Origin: Jimgerdemannia flammicorona
Taxonomy: Eukaryota
NCBI GenBank assembly: GCA_003990765.1
Contig: RBNJ01000129.1
Span: 1 to 40,035, forward strand
Reading direction: 5' to 3'
DNA length: 40,035 nucleotides
Made by a program: the position numbers and the translations under genes. The notes under the pieces were generated by a model. That model saw only the letters and a program-made list of their open reading frames with translations, did not search any database and was not told the DNA's origin. Numbering within the stretch: position 1 is the first letter of the stretch; every line of letters starts with the position of its first letter. Shown piece after piece: positions 3,207 through 33,773 of this stretch.

Positions 3207-3207
3207 T

Positions 3208-4766: not shown

Positions 4767-6313
4767 TGTAATAGTGACCCCAGAATGATGACATCAGCAC
4801 AGGAGACAGTCTTTCCTTATAAGCTATCAGATTAGAGCACAAGAAGATCATATGGTATATGAGATGAGCAATGATGACCAATTGTGAGTTATTGTGACCA
4901 CAGTATAAGCATTCTGAGGAATATAAAAGAAGGATCAAGAAACTGCAGTAACAGCAATCAACAAGACCCACCAATCCCAAAATAGCTCAAAGACTCACTA
5001 CAAATGAAATGCCTACTGCCTGTCAAACCTCAAGATCAAGAAACTACCAAGATATCTCAGTTGAAGAAAGGATGTTCCAAGACATCAGAAGAGCCATGAG
5101 GACTCACTCAAAAAGGACTCCTAGTATCAACCTGGGTACTGGTGACTCTTATCACTATATCCTCTACCACTGTGAAATGGAAACAAGGATCACTATTGCT
5201 ACTAAATGTCTCCAAATATAGCAGGAGTATGAAATAGGAAACCTCCTCTGCTGGGAGTTCCCACAGGCCAGCTCTCAAGAGCTACAAGATGCCACTTCCA
5301 TAGATATATATGAGGCAAGAATGGCTAAGAAGATCCATCAGATCTTCAGGCATGTACCATGGTCAATCCCCAACTTGAAGTATGTTAGAGTCTTAGATTT
5401 CAGAGATCTGTCATCCTGCCATATCAATACACTAGAAGCCAGGGTGGCTACAGAAGCCCAGTCCACTATTACTCTCAATAGTGATGAAGTAGAAGACTTC
5501 TGGTATCCCATCCTTCAGAACAACCCAGACCAATTTCTGCAAGGATTGATCTCAGTATTTCAAGGCCCAAGCATCTAGGTTAGACCTCCCCAAGATCCCA
5601 CATTTGTTCCCTATTTTGTAGAAGAGAACCTCATAGACTAGAGAGCTCCAGACCTCCTTCCCACCACTGAATGTGATGACATCATCGGCAATGACATCAT
5701 TCTGTGCAATATTGAAGCATGTGAAACATGCAACATATGTGAGATATGTGGACAATGACAAGACAGATGAGATATTTACAGACCTCATCTCCTTCGAAGA
5801 CATCCTGACTTCTAATGATGAAGCCCCTATAGTCTTGAACATTCTGCTCTAAGTCTCCTAGTTACACTGAATAATACCAGCACCAGCATTCTGAGGTGAT
5901 GCAAAATTATGCTAGCACTGGTATTCTGATGTGATATCAAATTATACCAGTATTCTGAACCTGTACAACCATTAGTACTGACCCTGGAACTTAGTAGTTT
6001 TTCCTGTCCTGGCATTTTGTTTTAGTTATTGGAATTTATATTTAGCTTTATATCTTAGCAACCATTGAATTATATTTTGTATAAATACTCCTCTTATTTC
6101 CTCTGAAATAAAGTCAGTTCTGATTCACTTATACACACTTCCTTGCAAGCAATCTAAGAGATAACAAGATAGTTAAAGATAAGTTTGAGGACTATAAGAC
6201 CTTGGGAAGGCACTCCAATAAGAACTTACTTATAATAAACTTGAGTTAGTCTAAGAGATATACCTTGAAGAGAATCTGGTATATTTGAAGAACTTAGTGA
6301 CCACTATATAACA
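4767..6313 (+). repeat. 3' LTR of A1 (~1.55 kb)
   Basis: Starts TGTAATAGTGACC directly after the PPT, ends ACTATATAACA; homologous to 6887-8438 and 15551-17094, with a divergent segment at ~5640-6000. Confidence 0.9.
5009..5850 (+). pseudogene. LTR-encoded accessory ORF of unknown function (A1 copy; 3' end approximate)
   Basis: ORFs 5009-5221 and 5321-5578 are in one frame, joined through stop codons; the ATG is conserved in all three family-A LTRs (5009, 7148, 15808). Confidence 0.7.
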
Positions 6314-6886: not shown

Positions 6887-8438
6887 TATAATGGTGATCT
6901 CAGAATGATGACATCAGCATAGGAGACAGCAATTCCTTATAAACCACCAGATTAAAGTATAAGAAGATTATATGGCATGACTTACCCAGGTTATAAGATG
7001 AGCAATGATGACCAACTATGAGTCATTGGGACCACAATACAAACATCTTGAAGAATATAAAAGAAGGATCAAGGAACTGCAGTAGTAGCAACTCAATAAG
7101 ACCTACTAATCCTAAAATATGTAGCTCAAAGACTTATCACAAACAAAATGCCTGCTGCTTGTCAAACCTCAAGATCAAGGAACCATCAAGATCCCTCAGT
7201 CTAGGAAAGGATGTTCCAAGACATCTGAAGAGCTATAAGGATCTGCACCACAAGGACTCCTAGTGTCAACCTGGGTACTGGTGACCTTTATCATTATATC
7301 CTCTACTATTATGAGATGGAAACAAGAATCACCATTACTACTAAATATCTCCAGATGTAGCAAGAATATAAAATAGGAAACCTTCTCAGCCAGGAATTCC
7401 CTCAAGCCAGCCCTCAAGAGCTACAAGATACTACTCTCATAGATATATGTAAAATAAGAACAGCTAAGAAGATTTATCAGATCTTCAGACATACACTATA
7501 GTCAATCTCCAACTTGGAGTATACCAGAGTCTCAGACTTCAGAGATCTGTCAGCCCATTATATCCATGCACTAGAAGCCATGGTAGCTACAGAGGTCAAG
7601 TCTACTATCACCCTCAATAGTGATGAGGTAGAAGAGTTCTGGTACCCCATCCTCCAGAACAACTCAGATCAGTTCCTATAAGGATTGATCTCAGCATTCC
7701 AAGGCCCTAGTATCCAGGTTAGACCTCCCCAAGACTCCACATTTGTTCCTTATTTTGTGGAAGAGAATGTCATAAATTGAAGAGCCCCCACTACTGAATG
7801 TAATGATGTCATCAGTAATAACATCATTCTACATAATATATATGATGAGATAGATAAAATATTTATAGATCTCATCTCTTTTAGTGATGATCAGAATGAA
7901 GCCCCCATAGTCCTGAACATTCTGCTTTAAAGTTTTTGGTGATATTGAATTCTGCCAGCATCCTTTTTCCATATAACAGTTAATCCTTCCACTGGCATTC
8001 TGATCTTGTATGACTCAGAATTCTTCCAGCATCCTTTTTCTATACTACCAAATTCTACCAGCACCCTGAACTTGTACAACCATCTATACCAATACTGGAA
8101 TCTGTACCAACAACTGTAGTTTTCTGTGTTCCAGTATTTTATTTGGTTATTGGAATTTATATTTAACTTTATATCTTAGCAACTATTGAATTATATTTTG
8201 TATAAATACCTCTCTTATTTCCTTTAAAATAAAGTCAGTTCTAGTTCACTTACTCTCAATTCCACACAAGCAATCTAAGAGATAATAAGACAGTTTAAAG
8301 ATAAGAAGTTTGAGGACTATAAGATCTTGAGAAGATACTCCAATAAGAGCTTACTTATAACAAACTTGAGTTAGTCTAAGAGATATACTTTGAAGAGAAT
8401 CTGACATATTTGAAGGACTCAGCAACCACTATGTGACA
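6887..8438 (+). repeat. 5' LTR of A2
   Basis: TATAATGGTGATC (decayed TGTAA...) to TATGTGACA; TATAAATA at 8201, AATAAA at 8228; contains the accessory ORF from ATG 7148. Confidence 0.9.
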
Positions 8439-8441
8439 ACT

Positions 8442-8460
8442 TGGTGTCCATTGGCTGGTG
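8442..8460 (+). promoter_or_regulatory. Primer-binding site of family A (tRNA not identified)
   Basis: TGGTGTCCATTGGCTGGTG after a 3-nt spacer downstream of the LTR; TGG is complementary to tRNA CCA. Confidence 0.7.
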
Positions 8461-10757
8461 ATTCAAGACAAATCTCTCACTTTCAAGCTGAAAAATGAAC
8501 AACTGTCATAACAACTATCCTGACTACAAGAGTCACCCCTGTAAGAATTCAAGATAAGATAGAAATATGTCTCCCTACATTCTATAGATATACTACTAAA
8601 GAGTCAATCCTGACCTTCATTGAAGACTTTGAATAATTCACTACTGTACAAGCCCTCAATATAGATGTACAATTGGCCCTTCTATCAGTCAGCCTCAGAG
8701 GACCTGTTAGAGACAAGTTCAATACAGCCACTATTGCTGATAATGGTGTAGCCAGACTTGCCAACATGAAGACCTTCCTCAGAACTATATACTATACTGA
8801 AAAGATCAAGCAAGCTCTCAAGGATCAACTCAATACTATCTGCCAGAGACTCAGTGAAGATCTCAACTCATTCTATATCTGAATCTGCCACCAGATTGTC
8901 TTAGTTAGCTATGATAACTGCCTCAAGGAACAAATAGTGGATTCAATCTTTCTCAAAGGAGTTCACTCTGAAATTGCCCTAGAAATCTGGTCTACCCTAG
9001 CTGTACTGACTCTTGATCAGAAAGTGGTCTTTGCATAGAGATATTGGACTGCCAGACATCCTGCCAAACACTCAATGGAGAAAATAACTAGTATCAAGAT
9101 AGAGCCATCAAAGCCAACTAGTATCATACTTGCCATAGTTGTAAACAGACAACTATCTCTACCTATCCCCAAGATAGCCAAAGCTGACCCAGTAGAGGAA
9201 CTTGCCAAGCAGTTTGCCAAGATGACTACATACCTTGGTAATGTTGTTAGAGAAGTCTGAAGTACTAACAGGAGACCAGTACAGATATTTGCAGCTACTA
9301 CAGAAGAATGTAATATTACATACTTCAGATATAGAGAAGAAGGCCACTATGTAAAGATTTGCATAACTGAAACAAGATACAAAGCCCAATTAAGTAATGC
9401 CATCAGAACCAGAGAACAAACCAATATAGTAGTCATCAAGGAGATTGATGATACTGATAATGAAGAATACTACAAGGAGTCTGAATTCTATCCTGTTACT
9501 GAAGGTACCAGAACCCAGTCCAAGCCCTATAATAAGAAGAGCAATAACAAGCCAGTTGGAAGACTGAAGAAGACCCCAGCTGTCATTATTCAAAGTAAGA
9601 CCCAATCTGAGGAGATTAATCAAGATATGGAGTTAGATGAAGCTACTTGCCAAATTATTGAAGGCACTACTTCAGTCTTAGAATAAAGTGTAAGTAAGAA
9701 GGAATAGAAGCTGCACAAGACCAAGATCCACCAGTATGATATCTATAAGGACATGAAGGAACAGAAGGTCAATGCTACTTTTAGACAACTAGCCAAAGTC
9801 CCTGCCTTTAGATAGTAGTTAAGAGTAGGACTTGCAACCACTATCAAGAACCAAGAATACAAGATCATAAAAACTCACAATGCATAAGATAATGATCAAG
9901 AAGACTCAGATAAAGAATCTGAAGACTAGTGCAAAACATCAGCCTATATCTCATATCAGATTGAAGATTATATCTTTAATACCATTATTGATACCAGTGC
10001 TGGAGAATGCCTCATAAGCAAGAAGACAATTGACCACCTAGACTGGGACATTGAAGAGTCCACCAAGGTGGTCTATATTACAGCAGATGGTATATAAGCT
10101 ATCCTCTCTTGGCAAAATCTGAGAAGTCCCCATCAATATAGAAAGAGCTACCATCTCAGTAGATGTGATTGTTATAAGTATCACCAATTATGATATCCTC
10201 ATTGGCAACCAATGGCTTTACAAGGCCAAGACCATCATTGAACTCAATGCCCAGAAGATATAGATCAACTATAGAGAAAGAAAGGTATGAGTCTCTATCA
10301 ATGTCCACAAAGGAGTTCTACTAGACATGGAAGAAGAGATGAAGAGGACACAGAAGTCTTCATGCACTCAGTGAATAAGAATAAGAATAAGAACAAGACA
10401 CCCAAGCTCACAGATGAGCAGTGATATAACAAGATCATTGATGGCTATGCCTCTCAAGGAAGTTACCCCCATGGTACTAGGATGTACTACTCTGAACACC
10501 TGAATGACTGCTGGTCCTACATCAGTGAAGTCAGAAAAATCTACCAACAAAAGCATGAGTAAGAAGCTGCTGAAGTAAAAAGGAAAGCTGAAGAAGATGA
10601 CCAGCTCTCAGAGCTGCAAGCTGACACTAATAATGAGGAGGAACAAGAACCAGACATCACCCTCAAGATCAAGAAGTTTCACTCTGAAGCCAAGATCTCA
10701 GAATACAAGACTAAAGAAGCCATAAGAATAAACCTTGCCAGTATTCAAGATACTACC

Positions 10758-12156
10758 TCATTTATTAACTATCTATAATATGCTACATATCCTCATACAA
10801 CATCAGTAGTCCCATTCTACCCCAATCTCAACCCACTACCAGCCTTATACCTTTAGGGTGTGAGTTGTGACCTCACTGTCCGAGTAACTAGATCCTCCTA
10901 TCCAGTCTGCCCCATCCAGTGGATATGGGTTGTGAGCCCCAATCACCTCAAGTACTTGGCATTTAGTGCACCTGACCTATCCCTATTAGTGCCTCCTATC
11001 TTGCCCATCTAGCCTGTCTTATCCACCCATGTTGCCTGTGTTGCCATCTTGCTATCTTGCCCATCTTACCCATCTTGCCCATCTTGCCTACCTGTATTGC
11101 CCATGTTGCCTGTGTTGCCCATATTGCCTACCCATATTGCCTGTATTGCCCATCTTACCCATCTTGCTCATGTTGCCCATATTACCCATATTGCCCATCT
11201 TACCCATCTTGCCCGTCTTGCCCATCTTGCCCATCTTGCCCACCCATGTTACCCATGTTGCCCATGTTGCCCATGTTGCCCATGTTGCCCATATTGCCCG
11301 TTTTGTCTGTTTTGTCTGTTTTGCCCATCTTGCCCATGTCACCTGTCTTGCTGTCTGCTTGTCTTGCCCATGTCGCCCATCTTGCTGTCTTGCCTGTCTT
11401 ACCTGTCTTGCCTACCTATATTGCCCATGTTGTCCATATTGCCCATGTTGCCCATATTGCCTGCCTGTATTGCCCATATTGCCCATGTTGCCCGCTCATG
11501 TTGCCCATGTTGCCTGTGTTGCCCATGTTGCCCACCTATGTTGCCCATGTTGCCCATGTTGCCCATTTTGCCCATTTTGCCCATTTTGCCCATTTTGTCC
11601 ATTTTGCCCATTTTGCCCATCTTGTCCATATCACCTGTCTTACCATCTGCCCATCTTGCCCATGTCGCCCATCTTGCCATCTTGCTGTCTTGCCTATCTT
11701 GCCCATCTTGCCCATCTTGTCTGTCTTGCCCATCTTGCCTGTCTTGCCTGTCTTGCCTGTCTTGCCTGTCTTGCCTGTCTTGCCCATCTTGCCCATCTTG
11801 CCCATGTCACCCATCTTGTCATCTTGCTGTCTTATCCATCTTGCCTGTCTTGCCCACCTGTGTTGCCCATATTGCCTGTGTTGTCTGTGTTGCCTGTGTT
11901 GCATGTTACCTGTATTGCCTGTTTTGCCCATATTGTCTATCTTACTGTCTACCTGTCTTACCCATGTTGCCCATCTTGCTGTCTTGCCATCTTGCCTGTC
12001 TTGCCCATCTTGCCTATGTTGTCCATGTTGCTTATATTGCCTATGTTGCCCATGTTGCCCATGTTGCCCATATTGCCTGTATTGTCCATATTGCCCATGT
12101 TGCCCATGGCCTACCAAACCATTATGACCATTAAGGTAGCAGAGAAAGGGGTGGCA
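10758..12156 (-). mobile_element. Non-autonomous minisatellite-containing retro-insert in the A2 dUTPase
   Basis: Perfect 16-bp TSD TATTCAAGATACTACC (10742-10757 / 12157-12172); absent from the equivalent site in A1 (~1375-1392); AATAAA on the minus strand at 10761-10766. Confidence 0.85.
10998..12108. repeat. 9-bp minisatellite (TTGCCCATG / TTGCCCATC / TTGCCTGTC variants) with higher-order blocks
   Basis: Visible directly; explains the three overlapping ~360-380 aa low-complexity ORFs on the + strand. Confidence 0.97.
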
Positions 12157-13994
12157 TATTCAAGATACTACCCTTGAACTACAGACCACCACTCTACTTG
12201 GCACCGAAATTGGAGTCAAGTTGCCAGAGAGCTATACTGGAATTATCAAGACCAGGAGCAGTCTAGCCAAAAGCGAAATCTCAGTTAAAGGAGGAGTAAT
12301 TGACCCTAATTATACTGGCAAGATCTTCCTTATAGTCAGGAATCACAACCTTACCACCCCATTCAAAGTCAAGAAGTATGACAGGATTGGTCAGATTCTG
12401 ATCCACAAAATCAAGAAGCCCAAGCCATTGAACTCATCAAGATCAAGAGAGGAGAACAAGGTTTTGGATCTACTGGAAGAGAAGCCTATGCTGCCACCAA
12501 GATTACTGAACTTGAGCACAAGAAAGATAAGGACCAGAACAAGTATATATATATATATCATTGGAGAAAACTTTCCTCTAGAAGAACAACTTCTCAAGAT
12601 CCTGTATCAGAATGTAGGAGTACTTGCTACAGACTTCAGAGATATCCACAATCAAGAACTCAAGTACTACCATGAAGTTGACACTGGTGATACCAAGCCC
12701 ATCTATCAGAAAGCCAGACCTATATCACCTGCCTACAGAGAATGACTGTAAGCAGAACTCAAGGAAATAGAAGAAGCCAGAATTATCAAGCAAGCTATCA
12801 GTCTCTGGGCTTCACCTATTGTCCTCATTCCAAAGAAAGGAAGCAAGCCTGGAGAGTTTGCCCCAAGACTCTGCATTGACTACAGAAAGCTCAATACAAT
12901 CACCAAAAAGAATAGGCAGTCCTTGCCAAATATTCAAGAAATCCTTACCACTCTTGAAAGTGAAGCCAAATACTACACCACCTTGGATCTATTCTCAGGC
13001 TTCCATCAGATTGGTCTCACTCAAGATGCCAGTGAGAAATCAGCCTTCATTACATCTGATACCACCTATATCTACCTGTAAATGCTATTTGGAATGTGCA
13101 ATGCTCCAGCAAGTTTTCAGTGAATAATAAATAGAGTCTTCAGCAATGAGATCAGAAAATGACTCTTTGTCTAGGTTGATAATGTGATCATCTTCAGCAA
13201 TACTATATGGGAATATGTCAATCATATATAGCTAGCTCTCAAGAAGCTCAAGGAGAATGGCCTCTACATCAAGCCTAAGAAGTGTAAGTTTGCAGCTCAG
13301 AAAATCACCTACCTAGGACACCTCATCAACCAGACTGAAATCCACACAGACTCTATAATGATTAAGGCTATTGCAGCCTACCCAAGACCCAGAATAACTA
13401 CAGAAGTCCATGCCTTCCTTGGACTGGCCTCCTACTACAGAAGATTCATCAAAGGATATGCCAATATTGCAGTACCTATCTATGAGCTACTGAAGAAGGA
13501 GATCAAATTTGAATAGACCAAGAAATGCCAAGAAACCTTCAATGAACTCAAGACAAGATTGACCTAAGCACCCATCCTCAGAAGATCAAATTGGAACCTA
13601 GAGTTCATCCTGCAGACAGATGCAAGTACTATAGGACTTAGAGCAGTCCTAGCTCAGAAGAAAGATGGACATGAATATGTCATCTCCTATGCAAGCCAAG
13701 GTACCTGTAGAGCAGAACAGAACTATGAGTCATGCAAGCTTAAATGCTTAACAGTAGTTTGGGCAGTAGACAAGTTCCACTACTACCTAGCTGGGAAATA
13801 CTTCACCTTTCAAACAGACCATTCCACTCTTGCCTGGCTATTTCACACTCTGAACCTCAAAGAAATATATTTCAGATAGATCTACAGGCTATAAGAGTAT
13901 GACTGTACTATTAAGCACTACTTAGGGAGAACTAATGCCAATACTGATATACTCTCAAGAACACTCTAAAACACTCCCATCAAGACTATTCAAC

Positions 13995-15196
13995 ATGAAT
14001 AAGGAGTTATACTATGAATTAATCAGCTATCTCAGGTAGCAGAAGATGCCCAACCACCTTGAATCCTGAACAATTACCATTATTAACTGGACTTAGAAAT
14101 AGTTTGAACTAGACAACACTACACTCAGAAAAGGAGGAAAGCTTGTAATACCTGAACACAAGAAGTATCAAGTAATGAAGGAAGTATACAAACAAGGATA
14201 CCTAAGAGAAACTAATATATGATAAGGCAAGAAGAACTATATGGTGGCTCAAGATGGAAGAAGATCTGTACCAATTTGTCAAAGAGTATAACAAGTACCA
14301 AAAACAGAAACAAGATCAGCAAGACCAGGCATCCAGATTACCAAGAATTGAGCCTATCCCCTTCTACCACATCACAATAGATATCATTGGGTTACCTAGT
14401 AATACTATCAGAAAACTGCTACATTATAGTTATTATAGACCTCTTTATCAAATGGATAGAAGCAGATGTATTACAAGAAGCCAATGCCCTCTCTATAGCC
14501 AACTTCCTGTACTGAGAAATCATCTGCTACTACAAGACACCAAAGCAAATTACCACAGACTACAGCACAGAATTTATCAATAGATTCTATGAGATAATAT
14601 ATCAGAAATACAAGATTCAGCACATCAAGACCACCATGTACCATTCTAAAGGAAATGGACAGACAGAGAGAACCAATAAGACCCTTAAGAACATCCTGGT
14701 AAAGATCTCAGACATATATAAGAATTGTGATAACTACCTCCCAACTGCCCTATCTGTCCTATAAGATATATAGTCACAGAGTACACACTTTACTCTAAGA
14801 GAACTGCTCTTTGGAGAAGAAGATTCTGATAGAACCTCAGCCATAAATCTAGACCTAACTTGGAGACAGATTGACTCAGAAATCCAGAGACTATACCAAA
14901 TCAGGAAGAAGGCTGAAGATTACATCATCAAGTTATAAGTGCTGATAAGGAAGCTTGCAGAAAAGAATCACAAGACCCTAGAACTCATCCAAATCAGAGA
15001 AAAGGTCCTACTATATCAAAATATGATAGAAGCCTCATGGTCATGAAAACTAAAACCCAAATAGGAAGGACCCTTCTATTTGTAAGATATTAAGGAAACT
15101 ATCTTCTGGCTTAGAAAACTCTCAGGGACCATACTACCTACTATAGTATATAGGAATAGACTTAAGAAATACCATGAACCTATATAAGAGAAGTAA
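13995..15196 (+). pseudogene. Integrase (A2), separate ORF
   Basis: ATG within CAACATGAATAA overlapping the RH stop; colinear with 3208-4412. Confidence 0.88.
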
Positions 15197-15550
15197 AATA
15201 TGATGACTTCCCATGAGGTTCTAGTCCATGAATTGTAACAGCATGTCTCATGACTAGCAGGCAATCTGTCTGGACCATTCTCTAAGAGATATGGCACTAG
15301 CAACTACTAATTCATGAGACTTTCAAAGCCAGAGGAGTTTGGACTATCAACTGATTGATCAAGATCAGAATCAGGCCCTTGCTTTATATGAAGAGAGTGA
15401 CCCTTCACCATTATGCCAAATACATAGGGAAGACACCAGCCCATAAATATTACTTTTTGACCCCCTGCTAGAGGTTATGAGATTAGTAAATTTTTCAGGA
15501 CTGGACCAATGAATAAGGATATTCAAGAAGATCCTTATTCAGGAGGAAGA

Positions 15551-17094
15551 TGTAACAGTAATCTCAGAATGATGATATAAGCACAAGAGACAGCAATTCC
15601 TTACAAGCTATCAGATCAAAGTACAAGAAGATTATACAGTATGACTCACCCAGGCTACAAGATGAGCAATGATGACCAACTGTGAGTTATTGGGACCACA
15701 ATATAAACATCTTGAAGAATATAAAAGAAGAATCAAGGAATCACAGTAGCAGCAACTCAACAAGACCCACTAATCCTGAAATAGCTCAAAGACTTATCAT
15801 AAACAAAATGTCTGCTACTTATCAAATCTTAAGATTAAGAAATCATCAAGGCCTCTCAATATAGGAAAGGATGTTTCAAGACATCTGAAGAGCCATAAGG
15901 ACTTATACCACAAGGACTCCTAGTGTCAACCTAAGTACTGGTGACCCTTATAATTATATCCTCTACTGCTATGAGATGGAAACAAGAATCACTTTTGCTA
16001 CTGAATGCCTCTAGATATAGCAAGAATATAAAATAGAAAACCTCCTCAGATGGAAATTCCCTCAAGCCAACCCTCAAGAGCTACAAGATGCCACTCTCAT
16101 AGATATATATGAAATAAGAACAGCTAAGAAGATTCATCAGATCTTCAGGTATGCACTATGGTCAATCCTCAACTTAGAGTATACCAGAGTCTCAGACTTC
16201 AGAGATCTGTCAGTCCATTATATCAATACACTAGAAGCCATGGTAGCTACAGAGGTCCAGTCCACTATCACCCTCAATAGTAATGAGGTAGAAGAGTTCT
16301 AGTATCCTATCCTCCAGGACAACCCAGATCAGTTCTTATAAGGATTAATCTCAGCATTCCAAGGCCCCAGTATCTAGGTTAGACCTCTCTAAGACCCCAC
16401 ATTTGTTCTTTATTTTGTGGAAGAGAATGTCATAGATTGGAGAGCCCCTGCTGCTGAATATGATGACATCATCAGTGATGATATCATTCCATGCAACATA
16501 TGCAACAAGATAGATGAAACATTTGCAGATCTCATCTCCTTTAGTGATGATAAGGATGAAAGTCCTGAACATTTAGCTTTAAAGTTCTTGGTGATACCAA
16601 ATTCTGCCAGTATTCTTTTTCCATATAACAGTTAATCCCTCCACTGGCATTCTGATCTTATGTGACTCAGAATTCTTCCAGCATCCTTTTCCTATACTAT
16701 TGAATTCTACTAGCACTTTAAACTTGTACAACCATTTGTACCAATACTGAAATCTGTACCAATAACTGTAGTTTTCTGTGTTCCAGTATTTTATTTAGTT
16801 ATTGGAATTTATATTTAGCTTTATATCTTAGCAACCATTGAATTATATTTTGTATAAATACCCCTCTTATTTCTTTTGAAATAAAGTCAGTTCTAGTTTA
16901 CTTACCCTCAATTCCATATAAGCAATCTAAGAGATAACAAGACAGTTTAAAGATAAGAAGTTTGAGGACTATAAGACCTTAGAAAGGCACTCTAATAAGA
17001 ACTTACTTATATATAACAAACTTGAGTTAGTCTAAGAGATACACTTTGAAGAGAATCTGATATATTTGAAGGACTCAGTGACTACTATGTGACA
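15551..17094 (+). repeat. 3' LTR of A2
   Basis: TGTAACAGTAATCTC after PPT AGGAGGAAGA; ends TATGTGACA; homologous to 6887-8438. Confidence 0.92.
15808..16635 (+). pseudogene. LTR-encoded accessory ORF (A2 3' LTR copy, ~275 codons)
   Basis: One frame from ATG 15808 to TAA 16635 with no net frameshift; stops are explicable as decayed CAA/CAG/CGA/TGG; includes QEYKIENLL...RTAKKIHQIFRYALWSILNLEYTRVSDFRDLS. Confidence 0.7.
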
Positions 17095-17287
17095 ATATAT
17101 ATATATATTTAGCTTATATCCTCAGGAATAGTATACCTAGAAATTTGAATAGATGATATCATTCTGGTTGAGATAGTAAGTAAGATTAATGATATAAAGG
17201 TAATACTATATCAGAAATTTAAGATGATATATAAATATGAGTGATGTATTCTATCTTATTGAAATATCAATTATATATAATAGGTAC
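17095..17287 (+). pseudogene. Copia RT fragment 2
   Basis: GIVYLEI*IDDIILV (Copia YVDD-equivalent), then LYQKFKM...FYLIEISI. Confidence 0.8.
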
Positions 17288-18540
17288 TGTGACAAACCAG
17301 AACATACCACCTAAATTATACCTTAGTCAGATGACCTGAACACACAGCATAGTAACCAGCAACCATTGCTATGGAAACTGTATAAATAGCCAGACTATCA
17401 GATAAGATATATCTGTGTAGGACCTGCACACCTGTGCTGGACCTGCATACTTGTGCTGGACCTGTACAACTTGCTATAGATAGCAAATCTATAGTTAGCC
17501 ACATAGAAACCAGATAGCAACCAACTTGTATAAATTACCTCAGAGACAAGATTGAATAAACCTCAGTCTGAATTGAAGTATAAACCAAAGAAGCCTCTAA
17601 AGATTGAGCATTGGTCCCCTTATTCCACTCCAGTCCACTTTCTGATACAAAGATTGATTGGTACACTTGCCAGACTAAGCTTGAAGATTTGCCACCAAAG
17701 TTCAAGGAGAACTTTGCTGCCTTTTGAAAAGAAACCCACTACTTAAGAAATAAGCTGTCATTTTCAAGAAGTCTACTGATTCAGGAGAATCTGCATCATC
17801 TGCTGTTTTTAAGTTATTTGCCACCATTCTTGCCACAAGCCAGTCTTTCTAATGCAACTTCACAGTAGAGCCAGTCTATGACATAACCTCATGCAAATGA
17901 AGCCAGTCTTTGATGTAACTTAAGTTAATTCCCAGTTGAAGCTGCCAATTCAGGAGAATCTGCATTATCCACCATTTCCAAGTTATCCACCATACTCCCA
18001 GTTAAAGCCACCATTTTCAAGTTATCCACATTCTCAGAAGAACCTGTACTGCTCAAGCTATTATTCCCAGAAGAACCCTATTTACACCATCTGAGTAGTA
18101 TTCCCAATTGAAGCTGAATCTATGACATTTGAGTTAATTGTCCCCAAATGTCCCACATAAGAAATCCACTGTGCTATACAGAGATCACCCACCACCCAAG
18201 AAGGAGAACTGCTAAATTGCCAGACTGTCATGCATAAGATTGTTGTGCTACACAGAAATCACCCACTACTCAAGAAGGAAACTGCTCATGCTATACACAA
18301 ATTCTGTCATTCCCAGTTGACCCAAGAAGGAAAGATATAAATCACTGCCACACCTAGAGAATCATCCTAATAAGAAAACTGCTCAAAGATATCCAGCTTG
18401 ACTATTATACCACTAAACACCAAGGACCTCAGGAATCTTAGAATATTTTATTGCTTTTTGACAAAGTAACTGGGGGCTTAAGCCAAACTACATCAATCCC
18501 CAACCTTGTAATTTGCCTCTATTGAGCCAGGCACATTACA
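17288..18540 (+). repeat. 5' LTR of B
   Basis: TGTGACAAACC...GGCACATTACA; TATAAAT at 17529, AATAAA at 17555; internal ~19-bp tandem (GGACCTGCACACCTGTGCT-like, about 3 copies) at ~17420-17475. Confidence 0.95.
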
Positions 18541-18542
18541 TT

Positions 18543-18559
18543 TGGAGGCTCAACTGGGA
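18543..18559 (+). promoter_or_regulatory. Primer-binding site of family B, tRNA-Pro-like
   Basis: TGGAGGCTCAACTGGGA after a 2-nt spacer; two transitions away from a Pro-type PBS TGGGGGCTCAACCGGGA (tRNA assignment is inference; Thr is possible). Confidence 0.7.
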
Positions 18560-18575
18560 AGATTTCAAAATCAAC

Positions 18576-20995
18576 ATGACTTTTCAACTCATAAGAATCC
18601 ACAGTCAAACTGGATACATTTGATACAACACCAACCTCTACTACTACAGGAGAACCAGTCATCACTAGCATTTGGACAGGAAGAGAAGTAATCACCTCAA
18701 GACTTACTAACTACCCAGCATCAGAAGGATCCCAACCAGAAGCAGGAGGCAGTACAGCCCGAAATCTCCAACCAGACCAACCAGATCAACCAGATCAACC
18801 AGACAATATAGGCAATCCTGCTAGAGATTTTGGAGAACTCACACACAAGAACTAGAAGACCTCATCACACAGACCCAATACTTTACAGCCAGACACTCCA
18901 CAACAGTCCCACCAATCTTACCAATAGAACCCCTACCACAACCTCTTGCAGAACTGGAAATAGCTCCTACAAGAATACCTAGGCCTATTCCACTCCATCC
19001 AAGGACCAGAACACTATCTTCAAGATACCCAAGCACCCCCATCTCTAGTGACAGTTTAGAAAGCAAATCAGAATCAGAATCCGAACTTGAACCAGGATCA
19101 GAGGAAAGTGATGACAAAATGGCCACCTCATTGCTAACCTTTGCAGTATATCCAGAGGAAGACCCCAGAGAATTCCTTAATGGAATTGAAGGAATTGCAG
19201 TCTTGAGAAATCTCTCAGATGAAAGAAAATTGCCATCTACAAAGCTTAGCTCAGAGAACCAGCCAGAGGAATTTTCCATCAAATAGCAAATAACTGAGAT
19301 TCAGAACTAGCAAGACAGATACAAGCAGCAATGTCTGATGAGCTAGAATATGAAGCCATGGTCCACTGGCTCATTAAAAAATATGCAGGAAACAAAACCC
19401 ATCACAAGGCTCAGGAATCCATCATGGGAATGAAGATGAATCTTAGAGAATCACCCAGAGCCTTCTTTATAAGAATCCAGAAGAGAATGCATTCTGCTGG
19501 GTTCAATGCCACCAACCAAGACATCATAGATCCAATGACCTTCATGAATGGAATTCCTCTGAATATTGCCCAGTATGTCCACACCCTAGGTATCAGAAGG
19601 TCTGAAGAGCAAGTAGATGCAGCCCAAGGATTCTTCGATGTCAGACAAGGAACTACCTGGAGTGATCATAACAAGAAGGAAGATAAAGAAGATATCCTGG
19701 TCAAAGCCCTGCAAGAACTCCTTCAAGGACAAGAAAGATCTGAGGAAAGAAGGCCAGCCAAGGAAGGAAAGAAGGACAGAAGTGAAATCCAAGACCTCAG
19801 CTCCAAGTTAGACCAATTGGTTGGACAGATTGAAAAACTCACTACATGTGAAAATCAGAGCTATCAAGACAATAGAGGATACTCACCACAGAGGAGCCAA
19901 GGTTATCTACCAAGAGATAACAGGAATTACTAGTAAGAAGAAAGAAGGTACTCTGTCCAAGACAGAGCCCAAGTCCAATACTTCTACTGTAGACAATTTG
20001 AACACTATGCCACTGAATGTGACAACAAAAGAAGTGACTGAAGGGACTCAGAACCACTGAACTGAAGGAATGACACTCAGTACAAGAAGACTGAAGTCCA
20101 TCCTGTTGAAGATTTCGAGGAAGCAAGCAACAGTGAAGACTACAGTGACCTAGACTTGTACCCCACTAAGGTTACAATCCAGAAAACAGTCTATCCAGTA
20201 GAAAAAAGAAAGAGACCTGTAGGAAGACCATCCAGAAACATCAGCAGAAGAATTATCTAAGAAGAGGATGAAGAACATGAGGAGGAACAAGTAGAAACAC
20301 CTCCCCAAACCCCTTCACCTTTTGTCTCTAAGATAAATGAGTTGTCACCAGAAGATGAAGAAATGGAACAAGAAGAACAGGAACCCACTGCTCCAAAACC
20401 TAAGAAGAAGTACACTCCGAAGACCATACCTAGAGACATTTACAATGAAGCCTGGCAGAAGATTCAAGAAGCAAAGATGGAAGTCCCTCTCCTGCAGTTC
20501 TTGCAACTGATACCAGCTGGGGTCTGAAACAAATTGCTGAGAACCACCAGGTCTAGCACTGACCGAGTTCCAATCCCACAGCAAGAACCAGCTTTCATTC
20601 CTATCCAAGCAGTCAAAAGACATGTCAGCACCTACTTATATGGAGATATTGGAGAATAAAAAGCGAAAATCCTCATAGACACAGGAGCAGCTGTCTGTGT
20701 TATTGCCAAATGATTCCTGGACACCCTCCAATGGCCCATTGATGGACCATCCAACCTCAGCATCATAGTAGCAGATGGAGCCCAAACTCAACCCCTTGGA
20801 GAAGTACAAAATATCACCATCTCTCTTGGACACATTCAGTTCTCCATCCCCAAGGCTGTTGTCACCAAAGCTGTCACCTATGATATAATTCTTGGCACCA
20901 ACTGGATGAAAGAAATGAATGCAGTTGTTGATATTGGCCAACAAGTACTCAAGTTTGATTATCGAGGCAAGAAGTATAGAGTTAAGGTGACCAGC
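18576..20995 (+). pseudogene. Gag (capsid-like region plus zinc knuckle) and aspartic protease of B
   Basis: EDPREFL, MKMNLRESPRAFFIRI, FMNGIP; knuckle (Y)FYCRQFEHYATEC at 19979-20020; ILIDTGAAVCVI at ~20678; YDIILGTNWM. 5' start approximate. Confidence 0.88.
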
Positions 20996-22299
20996 TATGA
21001 GCAATCAAAGAAGAAGAAGATCACTATTCAGGAAGAATATACCAGTAGTGAGAAATCCACCACAGAAGAAGAGGAAGAATCTGAAGATGGAAATGATCCC
21101 AGACTCAATCCCTGAATTAACCTGGTGGATGACAGACCAGAAGACAATGTATGGGCCAAGAACACCATCTCCATCACTATTGGAGCCATTGCAGGAGAAG
21201 CCAAAGGATACCCTATCTGCCTCAAGAGACACAAGTGTCCTGAGCACTCCTCCAAGATCATGGGAACAAGGAAATCGCCTGGCACAGCCTGCCCAGAGTG
21301 CAGAAGGAAGAAGAAGAAATACAGACATGTTCTAGAAACACCTGCAACCAAAGCTGCAGAAGTACAAGCAATTTGGGGTCAAGAATCATCTGAGGAAGAA
21401 GAAACTTCTGACCAAGAAGTTCTCAAACAAGAAGTACCTGAAGAAGAAGAGATCCCTGAACTCATTCCCTGGGATGACCCTCGCTGGACACCATCTAAAG
21501 ACAATGACCCTTGGAATACAGAAGAAGGACCCAGTACAATCACCATTATCCCCAAGAAAGAAACCCACCAAGAGAAAGCTTTTCAGCTAGGAAGATGTCC
21601 ACACCAAATGGTCTTCCACTCTCCCTGAGACTACTGCTATCAGTGTCATCTGTTGGACCAATAAGAAAGACAGAGACCCCAGAGACCAGAACCCCCAACT
21701 ACCCTTGCACAGTCCACCATCTTTCAAGAAGTCACCACAAGGTTACAAAGTCAATTTAGGGGACAAGGCTTCTTTACCCAAACAGAAAGATACCCCTTGT
21801 CTACCCTTCCCCTGACCTATGATCAAGATAGGTACTGATTCCCAAGACAACAAGAGATAAATAGCTGAGAATATCATTTTCAGGCAATGGAATATTGCAA
21901 CCACAGGAGACATCCTGACTGCCAAGACTGCAGACATCAGAAGATTCACCTCAGTATTGATATTACAGTGCACACTTTGAGGAAAGGAGATAATCAAAGC
22001 CAGATCCAAAAAAACCAGATTCAAAAAAGCCAGACCAAGAAGCCCAGAAAAAGAATCCTCAAGATCTATGATTTGAGAGAAGACATCCTAGCTCTCATCA
22101 GACATATAACCTGCCAAGGATGGGCAGAAGATGCCACCAACTTCATGGAAGCCCTTGACCCTATAGGAAGGAGGGGAATCAACTACCTCTGAGACCCCTC
22201 TACTGGAGCCAGATGGCCACACCTCAACCTTAGAGCTTGGAGACTTTCCGCTAGTAGAGCTTCAGCCTTAGGAAAGCTTGAACTCAGCAAGGATATTGC

Positions 22300-22705
22300 C
22301 CTGTATGTCCTGCTGCACTCCAAGGCCAAACCCCCAACCAAAGCCCACCCAGAGGATGTAGGATATAATCTTCACAGCCTGGAGGATGAATCTATCAAGC
22401 CTGGAAAAACCTTCATGGTCAGAACCAGATTAGCCATGCAGCCACCCCAAGGAGCTTATATTCAACTGACCTCAAGGTCCGGACTTGCCAGACAAGAGAT
22501 AACTGTAGAAGGAGGAACCATTGACCCAGGATATACAGGCGAAATCAAGGTCATCCTACACAACAGCAGTGCAGAATGACACTGAATCATTAGAGGACAG
22601 AAGATTGCCCAGGCAATCTTCATGAAAGTCAAGACCCCTCAGTTATGGGAAGTCTCTGAACTAACTGAAGGAACAAGACAAGCCAAGAGATTTGGAAGTT
22701 CAGAC
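22300..22705 (+). pseudogene. dut: dUTPase domain of B
   Basis: DVGYNL, SRSGLA, GGTIDPGYTGEIKVIL, QKIAQAI, RQAKRFGSSD. Confidence 0.93.
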
Positions 22706-23239
22706 AGGAAGGAGGTATATCTTCTTCAAGTCAACCACCTCAAGAGAAATGTTCCCCAGCAAGTATACTGGCAACCAGTCAGACTGCACAAGAATCTCAT
22801 CCTGGAGCCCAGAGAACAAACTACCTTCGAAATCTTTGCACCACCTGACCCCAGAAACCTTTTCTTTGAACCCAAGGAAGATATCTCACACCTGGACATA
22901 GAGGGATACACATTCCCTGACAAGATGAACCCCGTACACTCCCAAGCAACCAACCAAAGTTAAGAGACCATTATCTTACTGAAAGGAATCATCATAGGAC
23001 ATCTGGTGCCCTTTCTCAACCAAACTTATAGGGAAGTTTATGAACTAAACCTATCAGGAAATGGCAAAAGATCCCAGAAGAAAGGAAAGGCCCCTCTGTG
23101 ACCTGGGAGACAGTGAAGCCTTCCACCAATATTGGAGAAGAATTGACATCTGGACAATAGCAACAACTAGTAGAACTTCTCAACAAATATCAAGATATCT
23201 TCACCACTGATTATGGTAACCTATCATACAACCCATCAT

Positions 23240-24527
23240 ATCACTACAGCATAAATACAGGAAGTGCAACACCCATCCAGCAGAAGCCCTATAGAATACC
23301 CCATCACTTGAAAACATTTGAAAAAGAGCACATTCAAGAACTCTTAGACAATGGAGTCATCTGACCCTCCACTTACCCCTGGGCCAGCTCTATACTTATT
23401 GTACCAAAGAAAGGAGGATGGAGACTCTGTGTAGATTACAGGAAACTCAATTCAGTCACTGAGAAGGATGCTTATCCTTTGCCCAGAATCAATGACCTTT
23501 GGATCAGTTACAGGATGACAGATACTTCAGCAGTATGGACCTCTTTGCAGGATTTCATGAGATCTCCATAGACCTCAAAGACATTCAAAAGACAGCCTTC
23601 CTTGCTCTAGGAAAACTGTTTGAATACCTCTGAATACCCTTTGGACTCTGCAATGCACCCCCCACCTTTCAAAGGATGATGAATTCAGTCTATGCCCCCT
23701 TGATCCACTACTGCCTGATTGTATATATGGATGATTCCAATATCTATTCAGTGAATTTCAAAGAACACCTGCACCACCTAGAGGAATTCTTCAAGCTCAC
23801 CCACAAGAATCACTTGAGATTAAATGCAAAGAAATGCTACTTTGGGAAACAGAAACTTGAATTTCTGGGATTTATGGTTTCAAAAGAAGGAACTCATGCA
23901 GACCTAAAGAAAACTGAGAAGATCAACAATTGGCCAGTATCCAAGACTCTAAAGGAAACACTATCATTTCTGATGCTAGTATTCTACTACAGAAGGTTCA
24001 TCAAGGACTTTGCCCAAATTGCTGCCCCGATCCAGATCCTTCTCAAGAAAGGAATACCATTCAAATAGACAGAGTTACAGGAAAAAGCCTTCAGAGAACT
24101 GAAGAACTGCATGACTATAGCACCAATCCTTGTGTGCCCCAATCTACAGAAGCCATTTATCTTATATACAGATACTTCCAAAGCTGGCCTAGGAGTAGTT
24201 CTAGCCCAAGAAGGACCTGATCAACAGCATCATGTGATAGCTTATGCAAGCAGAGCTACCAATCAGCAGCAGATGAACTATGGTAGCACCAAACTAGAAT
24301 GTCTTGCAGTTATATGGGCAGTCACTCTGTTCAAGCATTACCTCATTAGAAAAAGGTTCACTCTGATCACAGACCATACAGCCCTCAAATAGCTATTCAA
24401 CTGCAAGGAACCTGCCAGAATTCTAGCCTGCTGGATTCTTATCCTTCAGAATTACAAAATCACAATTATTCACAAAGCAGGGAAAGCCCACAACAATGTT
24501 GATATACTTTCCCACCAGCCCCAATGA
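23240..24527 (+). pseudogene. Reverse transcriptase and RNase H of B
   Basis: [46 protein letters not shown] at 23724-23735, YTDTSKAGLG, KLECLAVIWA, TDHTALK, HNNVDILS*. Confidence 0.95.
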
Positions 24528-25603
24528 ACCAGAAGAAGAGTGTTCTGAGGAACCACACCCTAAAGAAAGCTTCTCAGACCATCAAGGAACAAGAAGATCT
24601 CATCCAACAAGAACATCAGAAAGTCCACCAAGGACAGATGAGCACAGAAGACAAGATTCGAAAACAATATCAACATTGGCCCTATCTCAGAACCCAAGTC
24701 TGAGATATCATTCAGAAATGTGACACTTACCAGAAGTACTAAGGAAAGAAGATCTATCAAGCCCCTCTACAACTGATTCCCCCACCCACTCACATCTTTC
24801 AGAGATGGAGAGTAGATGTAATTAGACCTCTACCAGTTACACCAAGAAGAAACAAATACATTCTTGTATTTGTAGAATATTTGACCAAGTGGTCCAAGGC
24901 TTTCCCAATGAAAATCACAGATGCCTTAACCATTGTAGGCCTCCTCCATGAACTCACACTCAGATATGGACCCCCAGAAGAACTCATTTCTGACCAAGAC
25001 ACAGAATTCATCAACAACATAATCACAAGTTATGTCTGAATTCACAAGATTCACCTCAAAAGGACTACATCATACCACTCCCAGACCAATGGCATGACAG
25101 AGAGAATGAACCAGACCATTAAGAAAGGACTTGCCTGAGTCAATCCTACTAATTGGGACCTCTGCTTACCTATGATTCTATGGGAAATTCAGAACACCCC
25201 TACTGCCTCCACCAAACAAAAACCATTCGAAATGATGTTTGCCAAGAGAACCAGAACTGCTGACCATGAGAATCTTGGAGATCTCTTCAAAAAGGCAGAA
25301 CAGTTATGTAATTAAGCCCGAGGACAGATTATCAAAGCCCAAGAAAGACAAAAGAAGTACTATAACCAAAAACAGAAAAATCAGGAGATCAAGATTGGAG
25401 ATCAAGTACTAGTTTGGAGAAGTATGATTGAAATGAATTTTGCTGCCAAACTGGAACCCAAATGGAAAGGACCTTATCTTGTATACAACATCAGAGGGAC
25501 CAGCATCTATTTAAGAAACATAGATAGATGAACCCTCAGAACACCAGTACACATCAATCACCTCAAGATATATCTTTCCTTACATCATGAATCAGAGGGT
25601 TGA
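24524..25603 (+). pseudogene. Integrase of B, separate ORF (ATGA overlap)
   Basis: MNQKK..., H...H...CDTYQK, VDVIRPLP, EYLTKW, LISDQDTEF, SYHSQTNGMTERMNQT, KLEPKWKGPY, VHINHLKIY. Confidence 0.9.
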
Positions 25604-26099
25604 CAACTACCTTCAGACTCTTATTCTCAGCTCATTTCAATCACTGCCAGTCCCCCTACTCCAATTCTGAGAAGTCAATGGGAACACTCTCCAGAAGATC
25701 CAGATTCATCAAGAGAATCTTGTCCTGGCCAGACAATTGCTACAGGTCCATCAACTTCAGGCCCACTATGCAATTGGGGAACAATTGCAGAACCTCCCAG
25801 TCCCAGAACAAACATATATCAGAAATATTACAGGACTATCAAAGAGAGATGTTACTGCTGCCGACAGGCTCTACACCCTTTACAAGCGAAACCCTGCAGC
25901 TCTGATGCAAGTACAATTCTCCTGGTATGATACACGAGGAATTAACCTAGCCACCTACCTGAGCATTGTCAATGCTGTTGAAATCTTATTCCCCAAAGAA
26001 GAAGAACCCTTGGAATAGAGTGACCATGGTATAGATGATGAAGATGATATAACAGGTATTGATGCAGAAGATGCTTACCCACACTAGAATGATGACTAA
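25587..26099 (+). pseudogene. Post-integrase accessory ORF of B (~170 codons, unknown function)
   Basis: MNQRVDNYLQTLIL...HYAIGEQL...AADRLYTLYKRNP... with an acidic tail; three internal stops consistent with CGA/TGG decay; ends ~30 nt before the PPT. Confidence 0.7.
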
Positions 26100-26139
26100 A
26101 GGATAGTCTGAGGACAGACCATCCTTTAGTGGGGGCTGG

Positions 26140-27402
26140 TGTGACCAACCAGAATGTACCACCTAAATTATACCTTAGCCAGATGATGTGAACACATAGT
26201 ATAGTAACCAGCAACCATTGCTGTAGAAACTGTATAAATAGCCAGACTACCAGATAAGGTATATCTGTGCAGAACCTGCACACCTGTGTCAGACCTGCAC
26301 ACTTGTGCTGGATCTGCACAACTTGCTATAGATAGCAAATCTATAGTTAGCCATATAGTAACCAGATAGCAACCAACTTATATAAATTACCTCAGAGACA
26401 AGAGTGAATAATCCTCAGTCTGAATTGAAGTATAAATCAAAGAAGCCTCTAAAGATTGAGCATTGGTCCCTTATTCCACTCTGGTCTACTTTCCAATACA
26501 AAGATTGATTGGTATGCTTGCCAGACTAAGTCTGAAGATTTACTGCCAAAGTTCAAGGAGAATTTTGCTGCCTTTTGAAAAGAAACCTACCACTTAAGGA
26601 ATAAGCCACCATTTTCAAGAAGTCTGCCAATTCAGGAGAATTTATATCATCCACTGTTTTTAAGTTATTCACCACCATTCTTGCCACAAGCCAGTCTTTC
26701 TGATACAACTTCACAGTGGAGCCAGTCTACAACATAACCCCATGCAAATGAAGCCAGTCTTTGACATAACTTGCCAAGAATCCTAGTTAATTCCCAGTTG
26801 AAGCTGCTAATTCAGAAGAATCCACATTATCTGCCATTTCTAAGTTATCTGCCATACTCCCAGTTGAAGCTGCTGTTTTCAAGTTATCTGCATTCCCAGA
26901 AGAACCTGTGCTGCCTGAGCTATTATTCCCAGAAGAACCCTATTTACACCATCTAAGTAGTATTCCCAATTGAAGCTGAATCCATGACATCTGAGTTAAT
27001 TGTCCCCAAATGTCCCACATAAGGAATCTGCTGTGCTACATAGAGATTGCCCACCACTCAAGAAGGAGAACTGCTAAATTGCCAGACCATTATGCACAAG
27101 ATCATCATGCTACACAGAAATCACCTACTACTCAAGAAGGAAACTGCTCGTGCTATACACAAATTCTGCCATTCCCAGTTGACCCAAGAAGGAAAGATAC
27201 AAATCACCACTATACCTAGAGAATCATCCCAATAAGGAAACTACTCAAAGATATCCAGCTTGACTATTATACCACTAAACACCAAGGACCTCAGGAATCT
27301 TAGAACATTTTGTTGCTTTTTGATAAAGTAACTGGGGGCTTAAGCCAAACTACATCAATCTCCAACCTTATAATTTGCCTCTATTGAGCTAGGCACATTA
27401 CA
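26140..27402 (+). repeat. 3' LTR of B
   Basis: TGTGACCAACC...GGCACATTACA; aligns end to end with 17288-18540. Confidence 0.95.
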
Positions 27403-27907
27403 GTACAAATATACAATATATCTATTATAAGTTACATATATTCAGACTATACTTGAATAATTTGGTTTAAGTATACAAACTAGTTGGAACCTTTATGGAA
27501 ATGTCTGTAAGGTTAAAGAAGTCCAGAAATACTATATTAAAAAATAATGACATCTCCTATTGGCAAGCTACATATAAGATCTCTCATATATCTTATATTT
27601 AAAATAAGACCCAATATATTATATACATATAGTCAATAAAGTGCCACAGTACTCAACTTTCTATGACAATTCACATTAGATGACAATTAAGTATATTTTT
27701 TTGATACATCAAAGTTATAGTATACTATATACTATATATAAGTAGCAATAGATTAAGCAGGAGTACTATAAGGTTATCTGATACATGTAATGCTAATTGG
27801 GTTAGCAACTTAGATGATGGATGGTCTATGACCAGATACCTCTTTAAAATTAGTGAATATAGAGCTATTTTGTAGCAAATATAAGCAATTTTCAGTGATA
27901 ATATTAT
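27403..27907 (+). pseudogene. Copia RT C-terminus and RNase H start (fragment 3)
   Basis: YIQTILE*FGL, decayed GSLMYL...RPNI, and CNANWVSNLDDGWSMTRYLFKI (equivalent to DADW...RSTTGY). Confidence 0.85.
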
Positions 27908-33683: not shown

Positions 33684-33773
33684 AATACTAGTAGCTTTTC
33701 TCCAGAAACTGTGTCAAAGGTGTTGCCAAAAGGTTGTGTAACCCGAATGTTACCAGAGAAAGAGTGAGGTATG

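Follow-up and report, generated by a model that had tools for sequence, protein, structure and literature searches.

The long terminal repeat (LTR) of mouse mammary tumor virus (MMTV), a vertebrate betaretrovirus, carries a superantigen gene, sag, in its U3 region, and the product of this gene is a type II membrane glycoprotein. The nef gene of the human and simian immunodeficiency viruses (HIV/SIV) and the bel, tas and bet genes of the foamy viruses are 3'-terminal accessory genes that lie downstream of pol and env and overlap U3. The foamy-virus genes have an internal promoter and include a transactivator with an acidic activation region. To our knowledge, the presence of an entire gene within U3 marks complex retroviruses and is not typical of Ty3/Gypsy elements. 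Extra open reading frames (ORFs) after pol are known in LTR retrotransposons, and most of them have no assigned role. Here we examine a 40,035-nt stretch of Jimgerdemannia flammicorona DNA (GCA_003990765.1, contig RBNJ01000129.1, forward strand; hereafter, the window), in which two elements of a Ty3/Gypsy family, family A, carry a copy of a third gene, ORF3-A, in each of their three LTRs. Our results indicate that ORF3-A is a real accessory gene, unusually placed and from an orphan family, that is dead in its local copies and whose link to a second gene, ORF3-B of the neighboring family B, is plausible and has modest statistical support.

Like sag, ORF3-A would be a complete accessory ORF of about 270 to 320 codons in U3, in an LTR of more than 1.3 kb, with a copy of the gene in every LTR. 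Unlike sag, it has no hydrophobic segment and no Pfam match at E <= 10, and its host is a Ty3/Gypsy element without env. The nef and bel genes differ in that they overlap U3 only partly, and they have no sequence or fold similarity to ORF3-A; the internal promoter and acidic activation region of the foamy viruses may nevertheless serve as working analogies for it. Searches of Pfam and of PDB sequences placed ORF3-A in no known retroviral accessory protein family.

Juno, Vesta and TelKA of bdelloid rotifers are Ty3/Gypsy-like elements with a dUTPase domain and a family-specific third ORF after pol, according to the parts of the report cited here (PMC5408684). Those parts describe the rotifer ORF3s as family specific, repeatedly acquired and typically expressed as separate, spliced transcription units; some are coiled-coil or without assignable function, and the assignable ones are env-like, GDSL or DEDDy (PMC5408684). 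Unlike ORF3-A, none is described there as lying inside an LTR (PMC5408684). Their host also differs, and we found no relation in sequence to ORF3-A. PosPlaTy3-5 and similar fungal Gypsy elements have a dUTPase between protease and reverse transcriptase (RT), and a figure legend mentions an 'add. ORF' for some fungal elements (PMC2864245, in the sections cited). Unlike family A, these dUTPase elements are chromoviruses, and the same sections describe neither an ORF inside the LTR nor a family of the ORF3-A type (PMC2864245). A keyword search of the literature, which can miss such a description, returned none of a Ty3/Gypsy element with a gene in its U3 and none of the ORF3-A family.

As judged from its relatives and its pattern of substitution, the ORF3-A frame is no accident: it is a true, conserved protein-coding gene that belongs to the element and has about 260 to 271 codons. 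A search of 5.8 billion clustered proteins gave 6 proteins at E <= 0.01 among 113 candidates. P0001 (247 amino acids [aa]) is 83% identical to the ORF3-A query (E 6.6e-106), and P0002 (271 aa) is 74% identical over 100% of the query, running from the same methionine through the same ...LNFLL end. When 1.84 billion representatives were searched with a profile, 5 proteins of 138 to 342 aa scored E <= 0.001; members that are 48%, 41% and 28% identical to P0002 are still open. None of the five has a curated name or a Pfam domain, and no match was longer than 342 aa, so no form fused to pol turned up among these representatives. Intact relatives in public assemblies span 247 to 342 aa, and the mutually divergent members P0002, P0009 and P0010 have a common start, MP(A/P)xR, at one alignment column.

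The two LTRs of the complete family-A element (element 2) were identical at insertion, so the differences between them represent neutral decay and provide a control for selection. Within this pair, the differences at codon positions 1, 2 and 3 number 34, 22 and 27 (chi-square P = 0.27). Between elements, i.e., at sites where both element 2 LTRs agree and element 1 differs, the corresponding numbers are 23, 14 and 41 (chi-square P = 0.0007). Synonymous and nonsynonymous changes stand at 40 to 38 between elements versus 25 to 58 within element 2 (Fisher P = 0.0068). This excess of third-position and synonymous changes implies that the ORF3-A frame was under purifying selection while the element lineages diverged and, together with the intact relatives, shows at the level of sequence comparison that the protein was selected while the elements were active. 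An earlier note on this DNA, which had proposed an accessory gene at this site, had counted a ratio of nonsynonymous to synonymous rates near 1 and frameshifts fixed in the family as findings against its proposal; what we observe is a synonymous bias between elements and the existence of intact, unshifted members.

All three ORF3-A copies in the window are pseudogenes, dead relics of the gene. The claim of the earlier note that the three family-A LTRs share one frame with a conserved ATG (5009, 7148 and 15808) holds, but the frame is not open, with 7 to 9 stops in each copy when the terminal stop is included (5009-5836, 276 codons; 7148-7930, 261 codons; 15808-16635, 276 codons and 9 stops). 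The other five frames contain 10 to 29 stops versus 7 to 9 in the named frame of each copy (six-frame count). The copies at 5009, with extra insertions, and at 15808, with an 8-bp deletion, are frameshifted at their 3' ends, and the homologous stop after ...LNILL is found at 5850-5852, 7928-7930 and 16580-16582. Two details of the earlier description must hence be revised: position 16635, given as the gene end, is only the first stop of the shifted frame, whereas the homologous stop ends at 16582; and a stop common to the three copies, for which R had been reconstructed (LQIRQEY), corresponds to W in the intact relatives (LQMWQEY).

C:G-to-T:A transitions account for 111 of 191 polarized changes between the element 2 LTRs, CpG observed/expected is 0.01 to 0.06 in all elements and in the AT-rich tail of the window, and TpG+CpA is raised to 1.22 to 1.27 in the elements. 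Decay of this cytosine-to-thymine type has produced the 7 to 9 stops per copy. The codon for W71 is a stop in all three copies, that for Q190 in copies 1 and 3 but not 2, and that for W211 in copies 1 and 2 but not 3. Recurrence at the same codons suggests that TGG and CAG/CAA codons are mutational hot spots. As stops have arisen in parallel in independent copies, shared stops are no proof of a dead ancestor, and we reject that use of them.

Searches were also made of metagenome and viral contigs. Among the metagenome contigs, 250 stretches matched and one (L001) passed, with no true ORF3-A relative among them. L001 belongs to a crAss-like phage contig (crAss muzzle, ART-PolyVal and DUF192) and had a short-peptide match at 30% identity; it was rejected as a false positive. 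This stretch, 13 kb of a 48.8-kb metagenome contig, contains only four stop-to-stop frames of at least 120 aa and may use a reassigned stop codon. Among the viral contigs, 90 stretches fit the ORF3-A pattern and none was a relative.

The repeats that hold ORF3-A are true LTRs. All three copies can be aligned over their full length; the left end of both 3' copies follows immediately after the purine tract AGGAGGAAGA, and the 5' copy enters the alignment at the same base. The right ends read ...GTGACA or ...TAACA. Unrelated DNA precedes the 5' LTR of element 2 and follows the 3' copies, and the DNA past 6313 has no relation to the other LTR copies in the alignment. A primer-binding-site-like stretch beginning with TGG is present from 8442, 3 nt after the 5' LTR of element 2. 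The shared ends, together with a purine tract and a primer-binding site where expected, exclude a tandem or nested artifact. The LTRs are unusually long, at about 1.55 kb; the element 2 pair is 86.5% identical over 1507 aligned bases, and LTRs from different family-A elements are 80 to 81% identical. Family A is a Ty3/Gypsy (Metaviridae) LTR retrotransposon with gag, protease, dUTPase, RT, RNase H and integrase, and it has the hallmarks of this group: LTR ends of the TG...CA type, a polypurine tract and a primer-binding-like site. In families A and B alike, the Pfam domains follow the order RVP_2, dUTPase, RVT_1, RT_RNaseH, rve, which puts the dUTPase between protease and RT. The Pfam scan found no chromodomain at E <= 0.01 in either family.

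ORF3-A occupies about positions 258 to 1032 of the 1544-bp LTR; the TATAAATA/AATAAA pair follows about 270 bp beyond its end, which by motif places the gene in U3. The proposal that an accessory gene lies in the LTR, and within it in U3, is thus borne out to the extent that ORF3-A is inside the LTR and upstream of a motif-assigned TATA box and poly(A) signal. In a full element, the gene would be read from the 3' end of the element RNA, through either a subgenomic message or a promoter inside U3. A conserved motif upstream of the ATG, TATAAAAG, is a candidate for such a U3-internal promoter; because TATA-like words are common in AT-rich DNA, it is a lead only. If there is a promoter of this kind, a solo LTR, too, would amount to a self-contained cassette for the gene.

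The ORF3-A product is best explained as a soluble protein that is mostly helical and ends in a long tail, acidic and probably disordered. The AlphaFold model predicts a mostly helical secondary structure (mean predicted local distance difference test score [pLDDT] 43.8). In a crude scan, as opposed to a dedicated predictor, no 19-residue window of P0002, P0010, P0012, P0013 or P0019 was free of D, E, K, R, H, Q and N; this absence of a hydrophobic span agrees with the earlier view that the protein has no transmembrane segment and is hence not env-like. An acidic tail had also been noted earlier for both proteins and was confirmed, with net tail charges of -8 to -21 in ORF3-A and -6 to -18 in ORF3-B; the D+E fraction is 0.20 to 0.37 in A and 0.38 to 0.46 in B. 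The A tail includes the conserved hydrophobic words ...DLISF... and ...LNFLL. Pfam gave no family at E <= 10 for P0002, P0001 and P0003 and none at E <= 1 for P0010, P0012 and P0011; sub-threshold rows for DUF7281 (0.058), LST1 (0.062) and HHH_RecD2 (0.36) were rejected as far below the cut-offs. A PDB sequence profile search with ORF3-A had no match at E <= 1. The only match of the B profile, to dynein regulatory complex subunit 4 (E 0.02), was taken as one of helical/coiled-coil composition, and a fold search with the ORF3-B model found nothing at E <= 0.001 in PDB or BFVD (best E, 0.62 and 0.076). It is possible, though doubtful, that ORF3-A serves as an adaptor or regulator and works by means of its acidic tail; it might, for instance, activate the LTR of its own element. 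Composition is the sole source of this idea: the tail fits an adaptor or activator, yet is not evidence of one.

The family-B element starts 193 bp past the end of element 2 and carries ORF3-B, the first ORF after integrase, which stops 40 bp short of the 3' LTR and is thus outside the repeat. By comparison with its relatives, ORF3-B is a real gene. A search gave 15 proteins at E <= 0.1 among 2943 candidates. P0013 (171 aa, 82% identical) and P0014 (172 aa) are intact relatives, and P0019, P0020 and P0021 are remoter members with 48 to 56% identity. The family-B stretch quoted in the earlier note starts at 25755, within the frame at 25587-26099. Three members (P0016, P0018 and P0019) start 20 to 40 residues further upstream, and this extension matches a second frame at 25440-25590 that overlaps the integrase end, so that ORF3-B overlaps pol in some members. 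The RT-RNase H regions of A and B are 38% identical over 340 residues (E 1e-74); this identity and the shared domain order indicate that the two families are distant relatives of uncommon architecture.

We consider it fairly likely, from profile comparisons and gene position, that ORF3-A and ORF3-B descend from one ancestral post-integrase gene. Alignment by hhalign of an 8-sequence A profile with a 6-sequence B profile covered 47 columns with a score of 22.0 (P 0.026, probability 1.9%); with 10 B sequences it covered 42 columns with a score of 28.9 (P 0.0018, probability 14.6%), both probabilities being below conventional thresholds. The register is the one that the earlier note had proposed by eye, YEIGxxL ... 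AKKIHQxFR against YAIGxxL ... AxRxYTLYK. Column shuffles of B never reached the observed scores (0 of 240 against 22.0 and 0 of 181 against 28.9; null mean, 12.3 to 12.6; maximum, 19.6 to 21.1), and a stricter shuffle in 8-column blocks, which keeps local motifs, reached 28.9 in 1 of 213 cases. When profile B was run against the six-frame window, its two best non-self matches were the ORF3-A cores at 7328-7513 and 5186-5353, in the correct frame (independent E values [i-E] of 0.2 and 0.25); the non-self match of profile A with the best E was the ORF3-B core at 25746-25916 (i-E 2.9). The predicted helices coincide in the aligned core (A, 47-83 and 100-115; B, 34-69 and 86-99; alignment offset, 13 to 14). 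Position and build are also alike: each gene is the next ORF past integrase on that strand and encodes a helical, acid-tailed protein, with the difference that ORF3-A lies inside the LTR and ORF3-B 40 bp outside. In the ESM Atlas, both queries had the same nearest cluster (244 aa, 61 members) at scores of 0.83 and 0.80, which are below the tool's trust level, and no score reached 0.9. The third-nearest cluster to a B-family protein was labeled Mucoromycota (score 0.79, below the tool's lead threshold), the sole lead on the resemblance to Glomeromycotina proteins that the earlier note had suggested. The homology suggested by the earlier note is therefore weakly supported: profile-profile comparison returns its alignment and shuffles rarely reach the score, but BLASTP finds nothing, the probability goes no higher than 14.6% and the flanks are silent.

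Taken together, we favor, as moderately probable, a reading in which family A is a Ty3/Gypsy element with a complete third gene, ORF3-A, in U3, which was selected while the element was active, is now dead locally and is probable kin of ORF3-B. A number of observations weigh against it. With BLASTP, A and B gave no alignment in the register described above, and the hhalign probabilities and the HMMER cross-matches (i-E, 0.2 to 2.9) fall short of conventional thresholds. The similarity is limited to a core of about 45 columns: with the C-terminal parts alone the score was reached by 71 of 235 shuffles, and the N-terminal parts alone gave P 0.15. The ORF3-A model (mean pLDDT 43.8, versus 68.5 for B) is too poor for structural comparison or search. 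Empty Pfam, PDB sequence and fold searches give no pointer to function. The U3, R and U5 boundaries are assigned by motif. The intact relatives sit on short contigs (0.7 to 4.8 kb) and may or may not adjoin an LTR or integrase, and four stops common to both LTRs of element 2 mean that its ORF3 was possibly already defective at insertion.

Several of these observations are also points for other explanations. The blank BLASTP result, hhalign probabilities of just 1.9 to 14.6% and flanks without signal would fit a scenario in which ORF3-A and ORF3-B are unrelated and were acquired independently by two dUTPase-bearing Gypsy lineages, their similarity being due to chance or to convergent helical/acidic composition. 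The one block shuffle of 213 that exceeded the observed score and the location of the two genes on opposite sides of the LTR boundary favor the same scenario, as does the repeated acquisition of family-specific ORF3s in the rotifer elements, as described in the cited parts of that report (PMC5408684). We regard independent acquisition as quite possible but not probable, as the hhalign score rose from 22.0 to 28.9 when the B profile was enriched, none of the column shuffles attained the observed scores and, in the six-frame window, each profile matches the other gene collinearly and in the right frame. Moreover, both genes are post-integrase and acid tailed, and both elements have the rare protease-dUTPase-RT order. 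A different explanation is that the ORF is a cellular gene or fragment that was captured by the LTR, or was domesticated by the host, and is dispensable for the element. ORF3-A has no assigned function, its intact relatives lie on short contigs, and the four stops common to the element 2 LTRs would be consistent with an element that transposed while its ORF3 was defective. A conserved cellular gene, however, should turn up in annotated genomes, and the search of 1.84 billion proteins yielded just 5 representatives, all from ENA or JGI assemblies and none with a curated name or a Pfam domain. Both family-A elements, which are independent, also carry ORF3-A at a matching place in the LTR, and the parallel stops at Q190 and W211 show that shared stops can arise after insertion. 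Capture or domestication is hence improbable.

It is still less probable that ORF3-A forms the C-terminal part of Pol, made by read-through or frameshifting and comparable to the chromodomains that extend integrase. The gene is on the same strand as integrase and downstream of it, and the B-family proteins P0016, P0018 and P0019 do reach into the integrase end in another frame. Against this, the ATG lies about 650 bp past the pol stop (about 15180), and the interval has stops in each of the three copies and contains the LTR boundary; three divergent A members share a start methionine; and no profile match exceeded 342 aa among the 1.84 billion representatives. The remaining possibility, a chance open frame in noncoding LTR DNA, could appeal to the 7 to 9 stops that interrupt every local copy, but it is already refuted by the intact relatives of 247 to 342 aa at identities down to 28%, by the third-position and synonymous excess between elements and by the stop count, which in each copy is lower in the named frame than in any of the other five.

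If ORF3-A and ORF3-B are homologous, as our preferred reading holds to be probable, the simplest account of their different positions would be that the plus-strand priming site, which sets the left LTR end through the polypurine tract, was displaced in the A lineage to a point upstream of the gene. A more extended model can be proposed, which we consider unlikely as a whole. In this model, an ancestral post-integrase gene of a dUTPase-bearing, fungal-type Ty3/Gypsy lineage would have been engulfed by U3 through the shift in priming site; every LTR, solo LTRs included, would be a cassette that has a TATA box of its own (15720) and uses the poly(A) signal of the LTR; and the gene would encode a retroelement regulator, either a transactivator or a silencing antagonist, as a counterpart of the accessory genes of complex retroviruses, from a protein family with no known relatives.

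The features of the window are listed in Table 1; the map was built from repeat finding, LTR alignments and Pfam scans of frames read through stops. A spacer of 27% GC separates the two family-A elements. Element 2 is set in TA-repeat DNA, so its target duplication is not readable with confidence; GTAC is present on both flanks of the family-B element (17284-17287 and 27403-27406) and is likely a 4-bp target duplication. Between the protease and dUTPase of element 2, at 10995-12107, a 9-bp unit, CCCATCTTG, is arrayed about 120 times, with 74% matches; element 1 has about 108 bp at this place, with 0 of 73 pattern matches. The array explains the 1.4-kb difference in length between elements 1 and 2 and the spurious long ORFs at 11029-12177. 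Downstream of family B, a C-rich block of about 50% GC (28000-34000) contains the relic of a non-LTR retrotransposon on the minus strand (about 29400-31650), with endonuclease-like and RT-like words in open stretches. The DNA that follows is AT rich and has a 204-bp direct repeat, 90% identical, at 36387-36590 and 38366-38569.

Table 1. Mapped features of the 40,035-nt window, in order of element
Feature	Position	Strand	Basis or remarks
Family-A element 1	1-6313	+	Truncated by window start; internal part 1-4766
3' LTR, element 1	4767-6313	+	Three-way LTR alignment; preceded by AGGAGGAAGA purine tract at 4757-4766; ends ...ACA
ORF3-A copy 1, decayed	5009-5852	+	8 stops in 276 codons, insertions, frameshift before ...LNILL stop; profile A score 331 (5072-5704)
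Family-A element 2, complete	6887-17094	+	LTRs 6887-8438 and 15551-17094
5' LTR, element 2	6887-8438	+	Homology to both 3' LTRs spans 6887-8438; ends ...GTGACA
ORF3-A copy 2, decayed	7148-7930	+	261 codons with 7 stops; aligns collinearly with intact relatives over the whole span between M and the ...LNILL stop; profile A score 295
Internal region, element 2	8439-15550	+	Pfam scan, three frames read through stops, plus sequence
gag-like sequence, element 2	within 8439-15550	+	Internal region, ahead of pol domains in gene order
Protease, element 2	about 10123-10269	+	Pfam scan
dUTPase, element 2	12161-12448	+	Pfam scan
RT, element 2	12827-13321	+	Pfam scan
RNase H, element 2	13517-13900	+	Pfam scan
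Integrase core, element 2	14414-14638	+	Pfam scan
Purine tract AGGAGGAAGA, element 2	15541-15550	+	Directly before 3' LTR
3' LTR, element 2	15551-17094	+	TGTAAC...GTGACA; alignment and sequence
TATAAAAG	15720-15727	+	88 bp upstream of ORF3-A ATG; identical in 3 of 3 LTR copies; candidate LTR-internal promoter
ORF3-A copy 3, decayed	15808-16582	+	Copy named in earlier note; 8-bp deletion near 3' end; profile A score 299
TATAAATA	16853-16860	+	Conserved in three LTR copies; presumed core promoter (TATA box), about LTR position 1303
AATAAA	16880-16885	+	Conserved in three LTR copies; presumed poly(A) signal, about LTR position 1330
Family-B element, complete	17288-27402	+	LTR comparison
5' LTR, family B	17288-18540	+	TGTGAC...TTACA
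Internal region, family B	18541-26139	+	Pfam scan
Protease, family B	about 20645-20947	+	Pfam scan
dUTPase, family B	22325-22702	+	Pfam scan
RT, family B	23481-23876	+	Pfam scan
RNase H, family B	24069-24455	+	Pfam scan
Integrase zinc finger, family B	24584-24739	+	Pfam scan
Integrase core, family B	24797-25078	+	Pfam scan
ORF3-B, post-integrase	25587-26099	+	170 codons, 3 internal stops in this copy; profile B score 246
3' LTR, family B	26140-27402	+	LTR comparison

For annotators, these results are a caution that long LTRs may hide genes. If our reading is true, families A and B, with the gene inside the LTR in one and outside it in the other, would be a natural pair for studying movement of the LTR boundary, and solo LTRs of family A could still express a protein. 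It would also define a small orphan protein family under selection, the activity of which is directly testable.

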